DNA from: Escherichia coli
Lineage (GTDB): Bacteria > Pseudomonadota > Gammaproteobacteria > Enterobacterales > Enterobacteriaceae
Assembly: GCF_013122565.1 (NCBI RefSeq)
Contig: NZ_CP053258.1
DNA length: 64,000 nucleotides
Direction: 5' to 3' (one strand)
Part shown: positions 15,906-32,630 of the stretch, in pieces
How the letters are laid out: each line of letters begins with the position of its first letter
Numbering within the stretch: position 1 is the first letter of the stretch
Notes under the pieces: generated by a model
Databases searched by the model: none
Told to the model about the DNA's origin: nothing
Seen by the model: the letters and a program-made list of their open reading frames with translations, nothing else
Program-made: the position numbers and the translations under genes

Positions 15906-17498
15906 TTATGCCTGGACAGTATGCATCAGACCGGCCATTTCATCTTTTACTGACTGAACTTGTGGCCCGATAACAACCTGCAGGTTATGTTGATTAAGTT
16001 GTACTACGCCAATTGCCCGATTGTCCTTCAGTGCCTGCACATTAACAAGCGACATATCTTTCACAGACAAACGCAGACGGGTAATGCAGTTATCCAGGCT
16101 AACAATATTGTCGGCACCGCCTAATGCTTCGAGGATTGCAGGAACGTTGTAACCTGATTTACCCGGCGCACCGGCAACGGCTTTTTCGATTGAACTGGCA
16201 ACTTCGCTATCGCGTCCCGGGGTTTTCAGATTGAAGCGGGTGATAGCGAAACGGAAGATGACGTAGTAAACGACAAACCAGATTGCCGCCACCACTGGCA
16301 CCATGTACCACTTGGTTGACAGACCATGCAAAATACCGAACACCACAAAGTCGATGATATTGCCGTCGGTATTACCGATGGTGACGCCGAGCACAGACAT
16401 GACGGTGAAGCCGAGGCCGGTTAACAGCGCGTGGATGACATACAGAACTGGCGCTACGAACAGAAACAGGAATTCCAGCGGTTCGGTCGTGCCACCAACG
16501 ACACAGGCGATCAGGCCAGAAATCAGCAGACCTTTAATTTTATGGCGATTTTCCGGGCGCGCACAGTGAAACATCGCTAACGCTGCACCTGGCAGACCGC
16601 CGAGAAACGCAGGCATTTTGCCTTGCGAAAGGAAACGCGTGGCGCTTTCAGAAAAACCGTGAGTGGTCGGGCAACTCAATTGAGCCTGGAAGATGGTCAG
16701 TGCGCCGCTGACGGTTTGACCGCAGACTTCCTGCGTGCCGCCTGCATCGGTAAAGCGAATTAATGCCACCAGAATGTGATGCAGACCAAACGGCAACAGC
16801 AGACGTTCACCGGTACCAAACAGCATCGGTCCGAAATCACCCGCGCTATTGATCATATGGCCTAAGCCGCTAATACCCATGGCGAAAATCGGCCAGACTA
16901 ATGGAATCACCAGGCCGACAAGGCCCATCACCAGCGAGGAGATGATTGGTACGAAGCGCGTACCTCCAAAGAATGCCAGCGCATCCGGCAGGCGGATATT
17001 ATGGAATCGCTCATGCAGCATCCAGACGATAATACCGGCGATCACCGCACCGAGGATCCCGGTGTCGATCGACTGGATCCCAAGAATGCTCTGGATGTTA
17101 TTGGCTTTCAGAACGGCGGCGTCTGTGGTTGGCAGAATGCCTTTATTGGTCAACCAGAAGTTTACCGCGAGGTTCATTACCGCATAACCGACGAAGCCAG
17201 CGAATGCCGCTACGCCTTTGTTTTCGCGTGCCAGGCCCAGCGGGATGGCGATACAGAACATGACTGGCAGGAAACTAAAAGCAAACGAGCCAATCTTACT
17301 CATCCAGGTAAAGATAGCCTGCAACACGGGGTTGCCCAGGACCGGGATTAGGGTGATGACATCGTGGCTACTAAGGGAACTACCAATGCCGAGCATAATG
17401 CCGCAGAACGACAATAATGCCACGGGTAACATGAAGGTTTTGCCTAACTGCTGGAAGAACTCCCACAGCGTGACTTTCGGTGCTGTTTTCGCCGTCAT
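15906..17498 (-). CDS. malX: PTS EIICB component (maltose/glucose-like)
   Basis: 530 aa counted from the ATG at 17498 (MTAKTAPKVTLWEFF...), which is preceded by GAGGAG. It has an EIIC membrane domain plus an EIIB Cys motif (NCITRLR). The 651-aa ORF is an upstream extension. Confidence 0.92.
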   Translation of the reverse strand: MTAKTAPKVTLWEFFQQLGKTFMLPVALLSFCGIMLGIGSSLSSHDVITLIPVLGNPVLQAIFTWMSKIGSFAFSFLPVMFCIAIPLGLARENKGVAAFAGFVGYAVMNLAVNFWLTNKGILPTTDAAVLKANNIQSILGIQSIDTGILGAVIAGIIVWMLHERFHNIRLPDALAFFGGTRFVPIISSLVMGLVGLVIPLVWPIFAMGISGLGHMINSAGDFGPMLFGTGERLLLPFGLHHILVALIRFTDAGGTQEVCGQTVSGALTIFQAQLSCPTTHGFSESATRFLSQGKMPAFLGGLPGAALAMFHCARPENRHKIKGLLISGLIACVVGGTTEPLEFLFLFVAPVLYVIHALLTGLGFTVMSVLGVTIGNTDGNIIDFVVFGILHGLSTKWYMVPVVAAIWFVVYYVIFRFAITRFNLKTPGRDSEVASSIEKAVAGAPGKSGYNVPAILEALGGADNIVSLDNCITRLRLSVKDMSLVNVQALKDNRAIGVVQLNQHNLQVVIGPQVQSVKDEMAGLMHTVQA

Positions 17499-19580: not shown

Positions 19581-19681
19581 TACACTAACGAACCGGTAAA
19601 CAGCCGTATGTGTTGTTTACCGGGATAGCGTGTGCAATTCATCAACGTCTCTGCTAAACAACTGGCAGCCAAATTACGGCT

Positions 19682-19695
19682 ATTGGTTAACCAAT
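19682..19695. promoter_or_regulatory. UxuR/ExuR-type operator candidate upstream of uidR
   Basis: Perfect palindrome attggttaaccaat, 114-127 bp upstream of the uidR ATG. It resembles the hexuronate-regulon box AAATTGGTATACCAATTT as I recall it. Confidence 0.5.
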
Positions 19696-19808
19696 AACTG
19701 GATGAAAAGCATACGAATAGAGTGTGCCTTCGCACTATTCAACAGCAATGATAGGCGCTCACCTGACAACGCGGTAAACTAGTTATTCATGCTAACTATA
19801 ATGATTTA

Positions 19809-20399
19809 ATGATGGATAACATGCAGACTGAAGCACAACCGACACGGACCCGGATCCTCAATGCTGCCAGAGAGATTTTTTCAGAAAATGGATTTCACAG
19901 TGCCTCGATGAAAGCCATCTGTAAATCTTGCGCCATTAGTCCCGGGACGCTCTATCACCATTTCATCTCCAAAGAAGCCTTGATTCAGGCGATTATCTTA
20001 CAGGACCAGGAGAGGGCGCTGGCCCGTTTTCGGGAACCGATTGAAGGGATTCATTTTGTTGACTATATGGTTGAGTCTATTGTCTCTCTCACCCATGAAG
20101 CCTTTGGGCAACGGGCGCTGGTGGTCGAAATTATGGCGGAAGGGATGCGTAACCCACAGGTCGCCGCCATGCTTAAAAATAAGCATATGACGATCACGGA
20201 GTTTGTTGCCCAACGGATGCGTGATGCCCAGCAAAAAGGCGAAATAAGCCCAGAAATCAACACGGCAATGACTTCACGTTTACTGCTGGATCTGACCTAC
20301 GGTGTACTGGCCGATATCGAAGCGGAAGACCTGGCGCGCGAAGCGTCGTTTGCTCAGGGATTACGCGCGATGATTGGCGGTATCTTAACCGCATCCTGA
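19809..20399 (+). CDS. uidR: TetR-family repressor of the glucuronide operon
   Basis: 196 aa with an N-terminal TetR HTH (RILNAAREIFSENGFHSASMKAICKSCAISPGTLYHHF). Matches E. coli UidR. Confidence 0.93.
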   Translation: MMDNMQTEAQPTRTRILNAAREIFSENGFHSASMKAICKSCAISPGTLYHHFISKEALIQAIILQDQERALARFREPIEGIHFVDYMVESIVSLTHEAFGQRALVVEIMAEGMRNPQVAAMLKNKHMTITEFVAQRMRDAQQKGEISPEINTAMTSRLLLDLTYGVLADIEAEDLAREASFAQGLRAMIGGILTAS

Positions 20400-20700
20400 T
20401 CCTCTTATTTCGCGGGCTGGTGATAACTGTGCCCGCGTTTCATATCGTAATTTCTCTGTGCAAAAATTATCCTCCCCGGGTTTGGAGAATTCCCCCCAAA
20501 ATATTCACCATAGCCATATGTCATGAGAGTTTATCGTTCCTAATACGCCCGAACGAACGTTCGATTGCTTATTTTATGGCTTCTGTCAACGCTGTTTTAA
20601 AGATTAATGCGATCAATATCACGCTGTGGGTATTGCAGTTTTTGGTTTTTTGATCGCGGTGTCAGTTCTTTTTATTTCCATTTCTCTTCCATGGGTTTCT

Positions 20701-23967
<3,267 letters not shown>

Positions 23968-24005
23968 TATTCAATAAAAATAATCAGAACATCAAAGGTG
24001 CAACT

Positions 24006-25271
24006 ATGAGAAAAATAGTGGCCATGGCCGTTATTTGCCTGACGGCTGCCTCTGGCCTTACCTCTGCTTACGCGGCGCAACTGGCTGACGATGAAGCGGG
24101 ACTACGCATCAGACTGAAAAACGAATTGCGCAGGGCTGATAAGCCCAGTGCTGGCGCGGGAAGAGATATTTACGCATGGGTACAGGGAGGATTGCTCGAT
24201 TTCAATAGTGGTTATTATTCCAATATTATTGGCGTTGAAGGCGGAGCGTATTATGTTTATAAATTAGGTGCTCGTGCTGATATGAGTACCCGGTGGTATC
24301 TTGATGGTGATAAAAGTTTTGGCTTTGCCCTGGGGGCAGTAAAAATAAAACCCAGTGAAAATAGCCTGCTTAAATTAGGTCGCTTCGGGACGGATTATAG
24401 TTATGGTAGCTTACCTTATCGTATTCCGTTAATGGCTGGCAGTTCGCAACGTACATTACCGACAGTTTCTGAAGGAGCATTAGGTTATTGGGCTTTAACG
24501 CCAAATATTGATCTGTGGGGAATGTGGCGTTCACGAGTATTTTTATGGACCGATTCAACAACCGGTATTCGTGATGAAGGGGTGTATAACAGCCAGACGG
24601 GAAAATACGATAAACATCGCGCACGTTCTTTTTTAGCCGCCAGTTGGCATGATGATACCAGTCGCTATTCTCTGGGGGCATCGGTACAGAAAGATGTTTC
24701 CAGTCAGATACAAAGTATTCTCGAGAAAAGCATACCGCTCGACCCGAATTATACGTTGAAAGGAGAGTTGCTCGGCTTTTACGCGCAACTCGAAGGTTTA
24801 AGTCGTAATACCAGCCAGCCCAATGAAACGGCGTTGGTTAGTGGACAATTGACCTGGAATGCGCCGTGGGGAAGCGTATTTGGCAGTGGTGGTTATTTGC
24901 GCCATGCAATGAATGGTGCCGTGGTGGATACCGACATTGGCTATCCCTTTTCATTAAGTCTTGATCGTAACCGTGAAGGAATGCAGTCCTGGCAATTGGG
25001 CGTCAACTATCGTTTAACTCCGCAATTTACACTGACATTTGCACCGATTGTGACTCGCGGCTATGAATCCAGTAAACGAGATGTGCGGATTGAAGGCGCG
25101 GGTATCTTAGGTGGTATGAACTATCGGGTCAGCGAAGGGCCGTTACAGGGGATGAATTTCTTTCTTGCTGCCGATAAAGGGCGGGAAAAGCGCGATGGCA
25201 GTACGCTGGGCGATCGCCTGAATTACTGGGATGTGAAAATGAGCATTCAGTATGACTTTATGCTGAAGTAA
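24006..25271 (+). CDS. uidC: Outer-membrane glucuronide-facilitating porin
   Basis: 421 aa with the signal peptide MRKIVAMAVICLTAASGLTSAYA. The protein is beta-rich and ends in an aromatic-rich C-terminus (YDFMLK). Confidence 0.92.
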   Translation: MRKIVAMAVICLTAASGLTSAYAAQLADDEAGLRIRLKNELRRADKPSAGAGRDIYAWVQGGLLDFNSGYYSNIIGVEGGAYYVYKLGARADMSTRWYLDGDKSFGFALGAVKIKPSENSLLKLGRFGTDYSYGSLPYRIPLMAGSSQRTLPTVSEGALGYWALTPNIDLWGMWRSRVFLWTDSTTGIRDEGVYNSQTGKYDKHRARSFLAASWHDDTSRYSLGASVQKDVSSQIQSILEKSIPLDPNYTLKGELLGFYAQLEGLSRNTSQPNETALVSGQLTWNAPWGSVFGSGGYLRHAMNGAVVDTDIGYPFSLSLDRNREGMQSWQLGVNYRLTPQFTLTFAPIVTRGYESSKRDVRIEGAGILGGMNYRVSEGPLQGMNFFLAADKGREKRDGSTLGDRLNYWDVKMSIQYDFMLK

Positions 25272-25276
25272 GAAAA

Positions 25277-25302
25277 ACGCCGGAGAGAAAATTCTCCGGC
25301 GT
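25277..25302 (+). terminator. Hairpin 5 nt downstream of uidC
   Basis: acgccggagagaaaattctccggcgt, with a 10-bp stem, followed by ttcag. Confidence 0.55.
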
Positions 25303-25334
25303 TTCAGATTGTTGACAAAGTGCGCGTTTTTTAT

Positions 25335-25432
25335 GCCGGATGCGGCGTAAACGCCTTATCCAGCCTACAAAAGCTCATAAATTCAAAATGTTGCAGGAAA
25401 AGGTAGGCCTGATAAGCGTAGCGCATCAGGCA
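25335..25432. repeat. BIME: two REP elements in inverted orientation
   Basis: gccggatgcggcgtaaacgccttatccagcctac (25335-25368) and gtaggcctgataagcgtagcgcatcaggca (25403-25432) are both classical E. coli REP sequences. Confidence 0.85.
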
Positions 25433-25457
25433 ATCTCTGGTTTGTAATCAGACGAAT

Positions 25458-25483
25458 ACGCCGGAGTGAAAATTCTCCGGCGT
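25458..25483 (-). terminator. Hairpin 13 nt downstream of ydgA
   Basis: acgccggagtgaaaattctccggcgt, identical to the 25277 hairpin except for one loop base. Confidence 0.5.
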
Positions 25484-25495
25484 TTTGGCCGTGAA

Positions 25496-27004
25496 TTACT
25501 GCTGCGGAATTGCCGGTACAGCCGGAACGTTAAGAGCTGGCATCGCAAACATGCCAACAAAATCTTCTAACGACATTTTCTGCCCGTTTAACGTGATCTG
25601 ACCGTTAGTATATTGCAGGCTGGTGGTGATGGTATTGTCCTGCAAGGTGGTCAGACGGAACATCTGCCCCATTGCTGATGCACCTTCAACTTGCTGTTTC
25701 GCCAGTTTTTTCGCTTGATCTTCCTGATAACCTTCCAGCTTCGCTACCTGAGTCATCAACTCAGTTGCCATATCCACCGGAATGGTCAGTTTCGCATCCA
25801 GAGATTTAACCGAACGATCTACTTCCTGCGCCAGCGTTTGCGGCGCTTCTTTAGTCGTTGCCGGATCTTTCAGGAACAGCGACAGATTCAGTGCACTTTC
25901 ACCCTGACTGTTTTTCCAGCTTAGTGGCGCGATAGTAATCACCGGATCGCCTTTCAACATCAGCGGCAGGGCGCTAAAGAAGGCTTCCGTCACTTTCTCC
26001 TGATAAAGTTCTGGATTGTTGGCAATTTCTGGCTGTGCCAGCAGCGCCTGAGTTTGCGCGTTATATTGCTGGCTAAACTGATGCCAGGCTTCGCCATCAA
26101 TTTGGCCGACTTTTAAAGTCAGCTTGCCGCTGCCCAGATCCTGATTCTGTACCTTCAGGCTGTTTAGCGAGTAATCCAGTTGGCTATTGATCGTTTTACC
26201 GTCATTGACCAGATCCGATTTACCGCTGATCTCCATGCCTTCCAGCAGTGCCAGTTCTTTGCCTTCCACTGAAATGGTCATTTTTTCCAGTGACAGTTTT
26301 TGATTTCCTACGCGCTCACCAAAACTTGCCAGCGTGCTGGAACCGTCGGTTTTCAGATTATTAAAGGTCAACTGTACTTTCTGGTTGTATTCGTTAACCG
26401 CGTCTATCCGACCACTTTGCGCCTCCCCGGAAAGGGAGATAGCTTTGCCGTCTCTGTCTGCATTTAACTGGAACTCGCCGCCGCTAAAGGCGACTTTTTC
26501 ATCCTTTTGCTCGTAATTCAGTGGCTTGAGCGAAATATCGGAACTGGAATCTCCGCTGTAACCAATGCGGGAGTTAATCTCAAAAGGCGTTTCACCTTTT
26601 GCCATATCAAACAGTGGCTTGCTAACTTCATTATTAACCAGCGTGGTTTGAATTGATGCCATCGACGGGATCAGGTTCAGTTTTTTTAGCTGGGCAAGGG
26701 GGAAGGGACCATGATCAACCGATTCGTTGAAGATGACGCTCTGACCGCTTTTAATCCACGGATTTTCTTTCCCGGCAATGGGTTTCACCAACAGTTGCAG
26801 CTGACTGCTGAATACGCCGCGATGATAGTTTTGATAACTCACTTCCAGGTTGGATTCAGGAGCGGTCAGTTTGAGTTGCGCGTTCGCCTGCGCGACCATG
26901 TCTTCGAGATGGGTTTCAATCTTCTTGCCTGTATACCATGCGCCGCCTGTCCAGACTACGCCTAGCGCAACAATGACGCCTACCGCTACCAGCGATTTAT
27001 TCAT
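25496..27004 (-). CDS. ydgA: DUF945-family membrane-anchored periplasmic protein
   Basis: 502 aa with an N-terminal TM (LVAVGVIVALGVVWTGGAWY). Matches E. coli YdgA. Confidence 0.9.
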   Translation of the reverse strand: MNKSLVAVGVIVALGVVWTGGAWYTGKKIETHLEDMVAQANAQLKLTAPESNLEVSYQNYHRGVFSSQLQLLVKPIAGKENPWIKSGQSVIFNESVDHGPFPLAQLKKLNLIPSMASIQTTLVNNEVSKPLFDMAKGETPFEINSRIGYSGDSSSDISLKPLNYEQKDEKVAFSGGEFQLNADRDGKAISLSGEAQSGRIDAVNEYNQKVQLTFNNLKTDGSSTLASFGERVGNQKLSLEKMTISVEGKELALLEGMEISGKSDLVNDGKTINSQLDYSLNSLKVQNQDLGSGKLTLKVGQIDGEAWHQFSQQYNAQTQALLAQPEIANNPELYQEKVTEAFFSALPLMLKGDPVITIAPLSWKNSQGESALNLSLFLKDPATTKEAPQTLAQEVDRSVKSLDAKLTIPVDMATELMTQVAKLEGYQEDQAKKLAKQQVEGASAMGQMFRLTTLQDNTITTSLQYTNGQITLNGQKMSLEDFVGMFAMPALNVPAVPAIPQQ

Positions 27005-27016
27005 AATGATTATCCA

Positions 27017-27047
27017 TAAAATGAAATCAGGCGGACTGGCCGCCTGA
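27017..27047 (-). terminator. Probable manA terminator
   Basis: On the minus strand the stem tcaggcgg/ccgcctga is followed by tttcatttta. Confidence 0.55.
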
Positions 27048-27104
27048 AGGTGTTATAAGCCTTTAATAAGCTTAGCAAGAGATGTTAATTTTTTCAGTAA
27101 GCTC

Positions 27105-28280
27105 TTACAGCTTGTTGTAAACACGCGCTAAACGGCCGTGGCCTTTGACAGTCACCGGTGATTCGTTGGCGGCAATAAACGCTGATTCACCCGATTTAAG
27201 CTGTAACTGCTGAGAACCTTTCCACAACGTTGCATCGCCTTCGACGCAGAACAAAATGGCGGCACTCTGCTGGCTAATGGTGGTTTCTTTATCACTAAGG
27301 TCATGCAGCGAGAAGGCAAAATCATCCACAGGAATCGGGAAGTCCAGTTCTGCACCTTGTTTCACCGGCTGGGTCAACAACTGGTTAGCCGGTTTGGCTT
27401 CGAACTTCACATTGGCAACCAGTTCCGGAATATCAATGTATTTAGGCGTCAGACCCGCACGCAGCACGTTATCGGAGTTCGCCATCACTTCCAGCGCCAC
27501 GCCTTGCAGGTAAGCGTGCGGCGTTTCAGCGAACAGGAACATCGCTTCGCCAGGATTCAATTTCACCACATTCAGCAACAGCGGGGAGAACAGACCGCTG
27601 TCATCCGGGTAAAATTCAGAAATTAAACGAATCGTTTGCCACGGTTCACCCTGCTGACTGTCGAGCGCCGATTTTAAAATCGCCAGCGCGCGGGATTTTT
27701 CTTCACCCTGCATATTCAACAGGCTGGCGAACAGTTCGCTTAAACGTTCGGCATTAGGCTGTTGTAAAAAGTGAGCAATTGCCGGATGTGCACCTGCGAC
27801 TGGCTGGAGTAGGGAGACAATCTCGGAAAACTCACGAAACGCGTTCATCGCAAGGAAAGGCGTCAGCGCAAAAACCAGCTCCGGCTTGTGGTTAGGATCT
27901 TTATAGTTACGCTCGGCGGCATCCATCGGGATACCTGCGGCATTTTCTTTGGCAAAACCGATTTCAGAATTGCGTTTGTTTGGATGAACCTGAATGGAGA
28001 GCGGCTGTGCTGCGCATAATACTTTGAACAGGAAAGGCAGTTCGCCAAAGCGTTTGGCAACGGCCTCTCCGAGCAGAGTCGATTTATCACTCTCAATCAC
28101 ATCACGCAGTGAAACGATATCTCCGGCGGCATTCTGCACTCGTGAACTGCTTTTCGGATGTGCGCCCATCCACAGCTCGGCCATCGGCTGGCTGGACGGA
28201 TTTTCCATACCATAAAGTTCAGTCAACGCCGTTTTGCTGCCCCAGGCATAGTTTTGCACTGAGTTAATGAGTTTTTGCAT
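27105..28280 (-). CDS. manA: Mannose-6-phosphate isomerase, type I
   Basis: 391 aa counted from the ATG at 28280 (MQKLINSVQNYAWGSKTALTELYG). The zinc-site contexts ELWMGAHP and IQVHP are present. The 417-aa ORF is an upstream extension. Confidence 0.94.
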   Translation of the reverse strand: MQKLINSVQNYAWGSKTALTELYGMENPSSQPMAELWMGAHPKSSSRVQNAAGDIVSLRDVIESDKSTLLGEAVAKRFGELPFLFKVLCAAQPLSIQVHPNKRNSEIGFAKENAAGIPMDAAERNYKDPNHKPELVFALTPFLAMNAFREFSEIVSLLQPVAGAHPAIAHFLQQPNAERLSELFASLLNMQGEEKSRALAILKSALDSQQGEPWQTIRLISEFYPDDSGLFSPLLLNVVKLNPGEAMFLFAETPHAYLQGVALEVMANSDNVLRAGLTPKYIDIPELVANVKFEAKPANQLLTQPVKQGAELDFPIPVDDFAFSLHDLSDKETTISQQSAAILFCVEGDATLWKGSQQLQLKSGESAFIAANESPVTVKGHGRLARVYNKL

Positions 28281-28478
28281 GATCAATCCCTGTTTTAATG
28301 TGGAAATTAATCCCGCTATTAAAGCAAGAATCCTACGGGAAGTAACCTGGAGCCGCAAAAAGTCGTACTAGTCTCAGTTTTTGTTAAAAAAGTGTGTAGG
28401 ATATTGTTACTCGCTTTTAACAGGGCAACGGAACACCCGCCCAGAGCATAACCAAACCAGGCAGTAAGTGAGAGAACA

Positions 28479-30125
28479 ATGTCAAACAAACCCTTTCATT
28501 ATCAGGCTCCTTTTCCACTCAAAAAAGATGATACTGAGTATTACCTGCTAACCAGCGAACACGTTAGCGTATCTGAATTTGAAGGGCAGGAGATTTTGAA
28601 AGTCGCACCCGAAGCGTTAACTCTGTTGGCGCGTCAGGCGTTTCATGATGCGTCATTTATGCTGCGTCCGGCTCACCAACAACAGGTGGCCGACATTCTG
28701 CGTGACCCGGAAGCCAGCGAAAATGATAAATATGTGGCGCTGCAATTCCTGCGCAACTCCGACATAGCGGCGAAAGGCGTTCTGCCAACCTGTCAGGATA
28801 CCGGCACTGCGATTATTGTTGGTAAAAAAGGGCAGCGTGTATGGACCGGTGGCGGTGATGAAGCGGCGCTGGCGCGCGGTGTTTATAACACTTATATCGA
28901 AGATAATCTGCGCTACTCGCAAAACGCGCCGCTGGATATGTATAAAGAGGTGAATACCGGCACCAATCTACCAGCGCAGATCGATCTTTATGCCGTTGAT
29001 GGCGACGAGTACAAATTCCTCTGTATCGCCAAAGGTGGTGGTTCGGCAAACAAGACGTATCTCTATCAGGAAACCAAAGCGTTACTAACGCCGGGGAAAC
29101 TGAAAAATTACCTGGTTGAGAAGATGCGCACGCTGGGTACGGCGGCCTGTCCTCCGTATCATATTGCGTTCGTTATTGGTGGAACTTCTGCAGAAACGAA
29201 CCTTAAAACGGTGAAACTGGCTTCCGCTAAATACTATGATGAACTGCCAACGGAAGGGAATGAGCACGGACAGGCGTTCCGCGATGTGGAACTGGAAAAA
29301 GAATTGCTGATCGAAGCGCAAAATCTTGGTCTGGGTGCGCAGTTTGGTGGTAAATACTTCGCTCACGACATCCGCGTGATTCGCCTGCCACGTCACGGCG
29401 CATCCTGCCCGGTCGGTATGGGCGTCTCCTGTTCTGCTGACCGTAATATCAAAGCGAAGATCAACCGTCAGGGGATCTGGATCGAAAAACTGGAACATAA
29501 TCCAGGCAAATATATCCCGGAAGAGCTGCGCAAAGCGGGAGAAGGTGAAGCGGTGCGCGTTGACCTTAACCGTCCGATGAAAGAGATCCTCGCCCAGTTG
29601 TCGCAGTATCCCGTTTCTACACGCTTATCGCTTAACGGCACGATTATCGTCGGTCGTGATATTGCTCACGCCAAACTGAAAGAGCGGATGGATAACGGTG
29701 AAGGGCTGCCGCAGTACATTAAAGATCATCCGATTTACTATGCGGGTCCGGCCAAAACGCCGGAAGGTTATGCCTCCGGTTCTCTTGGCCCAACGACCGC
29801 CGGACGGATGGATTCTTATGTCGATCAACTGCAAGCGCAGGGCGGAAGTATGATCATGCTGGCGAAAGGCAACCGCAGCCAGCAGGTGACGGATGCCTGT
29901 AAAAAACACGGTGGCTTCTACCTTGGCAGTATCGGTGGTCCGGCCGCTGTATTGGCGCAGGGTAGTATTAAGAGCCTGGAATGTGTTGAATATCCGGAAC
30001 TGGGAATGGAAGCCATCTGGAAAATTGAAGTGGAAGATTTCCCGGCGTTTATTCTTGTGGATGATAAAGGAAATGACTTCTTCCAGCAGATACAACTCAC
30101 ACAATGCACCCGCTGTGTGAAATAA
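28479..30125 (+). CDS. fumA: Fumarate hydratase class I (Fe-S, aerobic)
   Basis: 548 aa, [29 protein letters not shown]... Matches E. coli FumA. Confidence 0.96.
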
Positions 30126-30130
30126 ACAGA

Positions 30131-30154
30131 GCCGCCCTTCGGGGCGGTTTTTTT
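30131..30154 (+). terminator. Rho-independent terminator of fumA
   Basis: gccgccc-ttcg-gggcggt stem-loop followed by a 7-nt T-run, 5 nt after the stop. Confidence 0.85.
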
Positions 30155-30267
30155 ACATGGCACGAAAGACCAAACATTTGTTATCAAATGGTAAATAATG
30201 AGTGAGCTAAAAGTTGCTTAACGAAAGCAAAACAGAAAGAAAAAATTAATCAGGTGAGGAGCAGGCC

Positions 30268-32630
<2,363 letters not shown>

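Follow-up and report, generated by a model that had tools for sequence, protein, structure and literature searches.

A BIME-1 between duplicated terminator hairpins in the uidC–ydgA spacer of Escherichia coli: precise deletions between the repeats and a probably ancient BIME-bearing state

Introduction

The convergent genes uidC and ydgA of Escherichia coli share a spacer in which, in the 64,000-nucleotide stretch of contig NZ_CP053258.1 analyzed here (the window), two near-identical hairpins bracket a pair of inverted repetitive extragenic palindromic (REP) sequences, that is, a bacterial interspersed mosaic element (BIME). This arrangement raises the question of whether the element arrived beside a single hairpin and duplicated it, or whether both hairpins were already in place and the element is being lost together with one of them. 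The original prediction, made from the sequence, took the former view: one shared bidirectional terminator was duplicated when the REP block was inserted or expanded, leaving something like a long target duplication as a footprint of REP mobility. The duplicated terminator, its specificity to the locus and the existence of single-hairpin alleles all stood up to the analysis; the assumed direction of change did not. The spacer probably holds an ancient BIME-1 between duplicated terminator copies, a unit that has been lost recurrently by deletion between the repeats.

BIME-1 elements have been defined previously (PMC3333891, PMC1187871), an IHF site is frequent in their L linker (PMC3333891), and the K-12 element downstream of ydgA has been named RIP126 (PMC2773258). 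Their presence or absence among E. coli isolates is already established, according to a statement in PMC1187871 that cites Bachellier et al. 1997. Since insertion with duplication and deletion between repeats yield the same pair of alleles, outgroups and haplotypes were needed to polarize the change. A set of 5,426 complete E. coli genomes was used for the genome comparisons, and ydgA loci from species representatives were used for the polarity test.

Results

Two copies of one locus-specific terminator

The uidC-proximal (left, L) and ydgA-proximal (right, R) hairpins differ at one position of their 26-nt cores, position 10 at the top of the stem, where A in L closes the stem and T in R gives a T-T mismatch. 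According to a repeat finder, the similarity spans 31 nt, of which 29 are identical (94%), at a spacing of 181. As the stem is a perfect palindrome, the orientation of the copies is set by the asymmetric loop GAAAAT, which has the same reading in both, and the repeats are therefore direct. The sequence, the repeat finder and the loop thus confirm the arrangement first described, with two 26-nt hairpins in direct orientation starting 181 bp apart around an inverted REP pair. Folded as RNA, L and R reach −21 to −22 kcal/mol on both strands (z = −3.6 to −7.4).

When up to 3 mismatches were allowed, the hairpin matched the 64-kb window at two places only, both on the plus strand, as compared with 0 in 100 shuffles. 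A 35-nt query laid over L found 7172 places in 5422 E. coli genomes, with a median of 1 and a maximum of 2 per genome. A dispersed repeat family, which would have contradicted the original prediction, was therefore rejected for the 26-mer. The divergence between L and R (1–3/26) equals that between orthologs of the hairpin (also 1–3/26). Their sequences identify the two hairpins as paralogous copies of one locus-specific terminator, in agreement with the proposed duplication.

We also considered a 207-bp miniature inverted-repeat transposable element (MITE) whose terminal inverted repeats would be the two hairpins. This candidate was rejected because the hairpins are located outside the boundaries of the BIME-1 family and are absent from the paralogs. 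No flanking direct repeat of at least 8 nt was found at the BIME-1 copies of the fepA–entD (two strains), asnB–nagD and ybiA–rhlE spacers; the duplication is therefore a peculiarity of the uidC–ydgA locus and not a signature of the family.

Two allele classes in E. coli

The uidC–ydgA BIME was found at 90% identity or above in 1771 records with an inner 150-bp query, which agrees with the approximately 1750 genomes having two hairpin places. In 3704 records, the best match of the inner block was 80–90%, representing only paralogs in other spacers. The BIME with two hairpins accordingly occurs in about one third of the complete genomes, and one hairpin occurs in about two thirds.

A spread sample of matches to positions 25000–25800 fell into two main classes, one of full length and one exactly 181 bp shorter. 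In the short class, for example in O157:H7 FRIK804, the spacer consists of the uidC stop, one hairpin and the ydgA stop, and measures 65 bp as against 245–246 bp. The 181-bp unit corresponds to the 147-bp BIME, 3 filler bases and one 31-nt repeat, and the single-hairpin alleles equal the BIME-bearing allele minus these 181 bp, with both outer flanks intact. The single-hairpin, BIME-less allele that had been predicted hence exists and is the majority state. The counts of hairpin places and of BIMEs revealed no sizeable class with both hairpins but no BIME. In a uidC-side tree, BIME-bearing and single-hairpin alleles were intermixed, and the same two left-hairpin haplotypes occurred in both classes.

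Two records of the short class showed further changes. In E. coli 382634_2f (NZ_CP039403.1, 575–1290; approximately window 25272–25276), a 711-bp IS200C with an annotated tnpA sits in the A-run between the uidC stop and the single hairpin of a BIME-less allele, with no visible target duplication (GTAAGAA / IS / AAAAAACGCC). In O157:H7 FRIK804 (1–571), uidC is annotated as frameshifted (pseudogene).

Recent precise deletions between the repeats

The two products that a precise deletion would leave in K-12, one with the left and one with the right loop, were built as synthetic sequences and searched against the E. coli genomes. The product with the left loop (L-type) was found in one piece at 342/342 positions in H9Ecoli and Z1323PEC0010, and the product with the right loop (R-type) was found in one piece at 341/342 positions (99.7%) in PS2Canimalfeces12, whose spacer, GTAAAAAATAACGCCGGAGTGAAAATTCTCCGGCGTTTTGGCCGTG, has the loop of the right copy between the left and right flanks. 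The flanks of all three strains are 99.8–99.96% identical to K-12 over approximately 4.9 kb, and the K-12 YdgA protein is encoded. The ordinary single-hairpin alleles are 97.2–97.8% identical to K-12 on the ydgA side and differ from it already 7 nt past the hairpin (GGCTG vs. GGCCG), and the R-type loop occurs in none of those sampled. Recombinational import is therefore unlikely for the three K-12-like cases, because the imported tract would have to end within 7 nt and no sampled allele could have supplied the R-type loop.

The finding of both L-type and R-type products implies at least two independent events, as deletion between direct repeats predicts. These data demonstrate that at least two independent, recent and precise 181-bp deletions took place inside the BIME-bearing clade, with the crossover on either side of the loop. 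The single-hairpin allele had been expected to represent an empty site from before insertion; since deletion gives the same sequence, and did so at least twice in a K-12-like haplotype, this expectation no longer follows from the allele.

Folded as single-stranded DNA, the 225-nt region reaches −50 kcal/mol (z = −6.8), and in the minimum-energy fold the arms of L and R pair mutually across the BIME. Such pairing would favor slippage.

Age of the two-hairpin structure

The full structure with the BIME and two hairpins is present in Shigella flexneri, and also in E. whittamii, where the hairpins have diverged (L ...GAGAGAAAACTCTC..., R ACACCGGAGAGAAAATCCTCC...). The BIME of the window is 89% identical to that of E. 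whittamii and 84–86% identical to the paralogs, and the E. coli BIMEs diverge from the E. whittamii copy by 11–13%. Locus-specific states common to the uidC–ydgA copies are CCAGCC in the Y REP, GGCAAT after the Z1 REP and TCATAAATTC in the linker.

SCPM-O-B-8794, which is labeled E. coli and represents a deep lineage with a ydgA diverged by 7–8%, carries a deletion corresponding to window 20788–25390. The loss takes in the left hairpin and the adjoining half of the BIME as well as most of the uid operon; the right BIME half is retained, as is the right hairpin. In E. albertii, the uid operon is gone and a remnant of the uidR 3′ end is retained (score 41 vs. 18.7 ± 2.5 in shuffles). The sequence before its hairpin, TTGTCATCAG / AATTCTGCTAATTGTCATCAG, comprises approximately 20 nt similar to the right outer motif of the BIME, followed by 6 nt, which is the same motif-to-hairpin distance as in the window; a second E. 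albertii contig is identical. This in-register match (9–10/10 at a fixed offset, approximately 1e-3 by our own estimate) is suggestive of a BIME remnant.

By these comparisons, the two-hairpin structure is at least as old as the split of E. coli and E. whittamii, and a still greater age is probable for the junction of the BIME with the ydgA-side hairpin. The balance favors a BIME-bearing ancestral state of the spacer; the state before the duplication was kept in no sampled lineage. The original assumption that the BIME-less state came first conflicts with the BIME beside the ydgA-side hairpin, which is complete in E. whittamii, halved in SCPM-O-B-8794 and a probable remnant in E. albertii. The species comparison proposed with it was informative in part: single-hairpin E. 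coli and the full structure in Shigella flexneri were found, and E. fergusonii proved to be rearranged and uninformative, its locus running from ydgA to malY and add with malX-malI-hdhA-uid missing or moved.

Several further observations concern these outgroup loci. The uid (beta-glucuronidase) operon was deleted independently in at least three Escherichia lineages, as judged by the remnants in E. albertii (uidR 3′ end), SCPM-O-B-8794 (uidR and the uidA upstream region) and Escherichia sp. MOD1-EC7003 (uidC tail). Two of these deletions end inside the BIME, the compared intervals being window 19606–25431 for E. albertii and 20788–25390 for SCPM-O-B-8794. In MOD1-EC7003, which has only a degraded uidC 3′ remnant and an alignment to the window that skips the hdhA interval, the hairpin (2458–2488 in reverse-complement coordinates) is the exact reverse complement, 31/31, of window 25304–25274; the loop is inverted and the flanks are in unchanged orientation. 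The single hairpin of E. fergusonii, ACGCCGGAGTGAAATTCTCCGGCG, has T at position 10, a base that in E. coli marks only the ydgA-proximal copy. The uid operon is missing from Salmonella and Citrobacter, whose ydgA terminators are unrelated. The malI–ydgA spacer of Citrobacter amalonaticus contains two tandem REP pairs of another REP type without the Escherichia-type hairpin, indicating that the convergent spacer downstream of ydgA was colonized independently by REP elements in this species.

The BIME-1 between the hairpins and its surroundings

The features of the locus are collected in Table 1. The two REPs of the original prediction were confirmed in place and in inverted orientation, as a Y type and a Z1 type. 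They align base for base with those of the fepA–entD, asnB–nagD and ybiA–rhlE copies, which are 82–86% identical to the element over 97–98% of the BIME length. The search with the inner 150 bp gave a match over 97–99% of the length in every E. coli genome, extending beyond the REPs alone. The left end of the family consensus directly abuts the L repeat.

Table 1. Features of the uidC–ydgA spacer and its flanking genes (window coordinates).
Feature	Position	Strand	Description
uidC	24006–25271	+	Glucuronide uptake porin coding sequence; open reading frame call and annotation in matching E. coli records
Left copy (L), 31-nt direct repeat	25274–25304		Core hairpin 25277–25302, acgccggagagaaaattctccggcgt; stem 10–12 bp, loop 6 nt (GAAAAT)
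Complete BIME-1 unit, 147 bp	25305–25451		Orthologous to K-12 RIP126; runs from CAGATTGTTGACAAAG (25305) to GTTTGTAATCAG (25451)
Left outer motif of BIME-1	25305–25334		CAGATTGTTGACAAAGTGCGCG...; kept in paralogs by alignment
Y-type REP	25335–25368	+	GCCGGATGCGGCGTAAACGCCTTATCCAGCCTAC; paralog alignment
L linker, 34 nt	25369–25402		Aligns with paralogs; IHF-consensus-like site 25381–25393
Z1-type REP	25403–25432	-	Inverted vs. Y REP; GTAGGCCTGATAAGCGTAGCGCATCAGGC on + strand; paralog alignment
Right outer motif of BIME-1	25433–25451		AATCTCTGGTTTGTAATCAG; paralog alignment
Filler, 3 bases	25452–25454		Between BIME right end and R repeat
Right copy (R), 31-nt direct repeat	25455–25485		Core hairpin 25458–25483, acgccggagtgaaaattctccggcgt; stem 9 bp, T-T mismatch at top; ydgA-proximal
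ydgA	25496–27004	-	DUF945 family, PF06097; open reading frame call and annotation in matching E. coli records

The element shows the properties of a BIME-1, also called RIP: inverted Y and Z1 REPs, a long L linker with an IHF-consensus-like site, a single extragenic unit of approximately 140–150 bp without tandem amplification between convergent stop codons, and a catalogued K-12 copy, RIP126, at the orthologous position, from which the window differs at 4/147 positions (97% identity). The candidate IHF site, ATTCAAAATGTTG, has 1 mismatch to the consensus WATCAANNNNTTR; as this consensus occurs at chance frequency across the window (60 found, 60 expected), only its place in the L motif counts. 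The alignments identify the block between the hairpins as a complete, already catalogued BIME-1, with the hairpins just outside the family boundaries.

The hairpins and REPs share the common spacer of the convergent uidC and ydgA, and the uidC stop codon ends 2 nt ahead of the left repeat. The uidC–ydgA spacer holds the only REP cluster in the window, so that the generality of flanking repeats was examined at paralogous loci of other genomes; REP-like cores standing alone were seen at 16980 and 58872 (GCCGGATGCG, GCCGGATACG (minus strand)). An Rfam scan of 24900–25900 at E ≤ 1 gave sub-threshold matches only, the best being the REP-derived naRNA4 (37 bits vs. a gathering score of 59.5), and the hairpins fit no RNA family. 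A sigma-70-like site on the minus strand at 25318–25291 is at chance level (1 found, 1.0 expected).

The nearest of the complete genomes is 98.0% identical to the window over 25000–25800 and 99.0% identical over manA–fumA (27100–31100), and the window represents a natural, poorly sampled E. coli lineage. The loop of its left hairpin, AGAAAATT, and the sequence before its right hairpin, GTAATCAGACGAAT, are closer to E. albertii, SCPM-O-B-8794 and E. whittamii than to K-12. Owing to these resemblances and to the lack of a close genome, the window looks like an early-branching BIME-bearing haplotype.

Termination in the spacer

A terminator scan found a full T-tract only in the minus-strand reading of L (tail TTTTTCTT); no other site in the spacer had the form of a canonical intrinsic terminator, and K-12 and single-hairpin O157 gave the same result. 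The other 3′ tails are TTT (L, plus strand), TTTT (R, plus strand) and TATTCGTCT (R, minus strand). Transcription of either gene in the window meets the poorer-tailed copy first (TTT for uidC, TATTCGTCT for ydgA), then the BIME and then the better-tailed copy. The single-hairpin allele has a good T-tract toward ydgA and TTTT toward uidC.

From these tails, we infer that ydgA transcripts commonly cross the BIME and end at the left hairpin. Such read-through would place the REP stem-loops in the 3′ untranslated region (UTR) of ydgA and make this region antisense to the 3′ end of uidC. A previous study in K-12 detected a 480-nt RNA containing RIP126, which its authors could not tell from a stable ydgA decay product, and called the ydgA terminator "predicted strong" (PMC2773258). 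The predicted read-through to the left hairpin would fit an RNA of this kind.

Discussion

This study provided evidence that the unit consisting of the BIME-1 and one hairpin is lost from the uidC–ydgA spacer by precise deletion. Loss of the unit is documented here, and its gain is not. The explanation that we consider probable is that an ancient BIME-1 lies between duplicated terminator copies and is lost recurrently by repeat-mediated deletion. A resident BIME-1 (RIP126 in K-12) is placed between two paralogous intrinsic-terminator hairpins serving the convergent uidC and ydgA. The 31-nt direct repeats, 181 bp apart and each palindromic, are also able to pair with each other across the quasi-palindromic insert, and this would make the unit prone to precise deletion through replication slippage or unequal recombination. 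Such deletion would likewise yield the single-hairpin allele of about two thirds of E. coli, the common haplotype included.

The textbook case of a palindromic insert lost through deletion between the short direct repeats on its two sides is the precise excision of Tn5 and Tn10 by strand slippage. The present locus is comparable in that the insert is removed together with exactly one repeat, the break points may lie anywhere in the repeat, and a quasi-palindromic insert brings the repeats together. It differs in that the repeats are palindromic and 31 nt long, as against 9 nt in Tn5/Tn10, and in that a transposase origin finds no support here.

Several observations weigh against this explanation. 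The evidence for the three recent deletions comes from public assemblies. A single hairpin is the state of two thirds of E. coli, O157:H7 and O25:H4 strains among them, and a ydgA-side tree places the BIME-bearing and single-hairpin alleles of E. coli as sister clades, which makes the root state within the species ambiguous. The L-type loop is found in all eight single-hairpin alleles sampled whose flanks are not of the K-12 type, a uniformity that suits an ancestral single hairpin as well as it does a small number of deletions. Among the other species, the remnant of E. albertii is short, and its free local alignment score was reached in 72/2000 shuffles; E. fergusonii is uninformative, its BIME remnant being not significant (30/500 and 164/500 shuffles reach the score); and E. 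ruysiae, Escherichia sp. E1V33 and Escherichia sp. MOD1-EC7003 have one hairpin. In E. ruysiae, uidC is 1.4–2.4% diverged from E. coli and the adjacent ydgA 6–7% (window 22819–25304 and 25458–29505), and its single-hairpin allele may have been imported. This divergence step suggests an interspecies recombination tract with a boundary at or near the terminator hairpin.

The original prediction corresponds to a model in which the single hairpin is ancestral, a BIME-1 inserted alongside it with duplication of approximately 31 nt of target (by a transposase, template switching or repair), and the single-hairpin alleles are unoccupied sites. It is consistent with the alleles differing by exactly the BIME and one repeat, with a repeat that directly adjoins the left end of the BIME consensus, with a hairpin found nowhere else in the genome, and with the one hairpin of several Escherichia lineages and most E. 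coli. We nevertheless regard this model as unlikely, given the BIME in deep lineages, the identical product made by precise deletion at least twice in a K-12-like background, the three other BIME-1 copies without a flanking repeat and the three filler bases between the BIME end and the right repeat. Moreover, RAYTs belong to the IS200/IS605-type Y1 transposases, which insert without duplicating their target (PMC3333891), and this speaks against the RAYT-made 31-nt duplication that had been suggested. In an alternative reading, E. coli was ancestrally single-hairpin, and one of its lineages received the BIME-bearing allele by homologous recombination from another Escherichia species in which it had persisted; the allele then spread. 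Interspecies exchange is real at this locus, as E. ruysiae shows, and the ydgA-side tree groups the BIME-bearing alleles as a single clade. However, the ydgA flank of this clade is typical of E. coli, being 1.8–3% from the single-hairpin alleles and approximately 7% from E. whittamii and SCPM-O-B-8794; no sampled donor fits, considering the distance of the E. coli BIME from the E. whittamii copy; and the clade is itself deep, with the window and K-12 1.8% apart in ydgA and 3% in the BIME. Import into E. coli hence appears improbable.

Excision by RAYT (TnpA-REP) of the BIME as a mobile REPIN could in principle produce single-hairpin alleles, since a study of Pseudomonas reported excision of REPINs (PMC3116915) and TnpA-REP cleaves at or near REPs (PMC3333891). 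The deleted unit is, however, 181 bp long with break points inside the hairpin repeats and not at REPs or C|T sites; L-type products occur beside R-type ones, which a crossover at any point of the repeat would produce; and the alleles to be expected from excision at the ends of the BIME, BIME-less with two hairpins, form no sizeable class (approximately 1750 genomes vs. 1771 records); we judge this route to be very improbable. Still less credible is the idea that uidC and ydgA each have a terminator of separate origin and that the two became alike by convergence or were homogenized by gene conversion. Each hairpin does adjoin a stop codon, the stems are under functional constraint, and the L loop of the window is one base nearer to R than the K-12 L loop. 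Against this, the copies agree at 29/31 nt with the loop and unpaired flanks included, the hairpin sequence is found nowhere else in E. coli, the ydgA terminators of Salmonella and Citrobacter are unrelated, and the paralogs diverge no less than the orthologs, so that concerted evolution is unnecessary.

The preferred explanation, an ancient BIME-1 with recurrent loss, leaves room for an earlier arrival event. It is possible that the hairpin duplication dates from the arrival of the BIME, and a template switch is then a more plausible route than a transposase, given that no target repeats are made by enzymes of the IS200/IS605 type. In one such scenario, which we consider quite unlikely, the 31-nt duplication would be the junction footprint of BIME-1 arrival: the element would have integrated where a fork had stalled or the terminator hairpin was extruded, and staggered processing or a double template switch would have copied the whole palindrome to either side of it, both copies being kept here only because both terminate. 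If true, this would be the first junction-level clue to how BIME-1 elements spread.

Compared with known systems, the element resembles the BIME-1/RIP (RIB) family and K-12 RIP126 in its REPs, linker, length of approximately 147 bp, single copy, extragenic position and outer motifs, and its presence or absence among strains matches that reported for BIME-1 loci. It differs from the three other copies in being bracketed by the 31-nt terminator repeat. Target-site duplications of MITEs and insertion sequences (IS) are similar in that a direct repeat flanks a small non-autonomous element and the element-less allele has one repeat; the 31 nt found here are far longer than known target-site duplications, the other family copies lack the repeat, and the polarity evidence at uidC–ydgA indicates loss, not gain. 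As in bidirectional intrinsic terminators, a GC-rich palindromic stem with A- and T-runs lies between convergent stops, the single-hairpin allele being the simple form; the window has the terminator twice with a BIME between, and a full T-tract only on the minus strand of the uidC-proximal copy.

As the element is already known as RIP126 and the mechanism is a textbook one, this is an ordinary finding with little significance beyond the uidC–ydgA locus. It does illustrate that an "empty site" beside an element flanked by direct repeats is no proof of insertion, since deletion demonstrably makes the same sequence here. The locus is a natural and easily assayed substrate for repeat-mediated REP loss, with a 246-bp vs. 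a 65-bp spacer, and it could serve to test the effect of a BIME in the ydgA 3′ UTR on the stability of ydgA or uidC mRNA.

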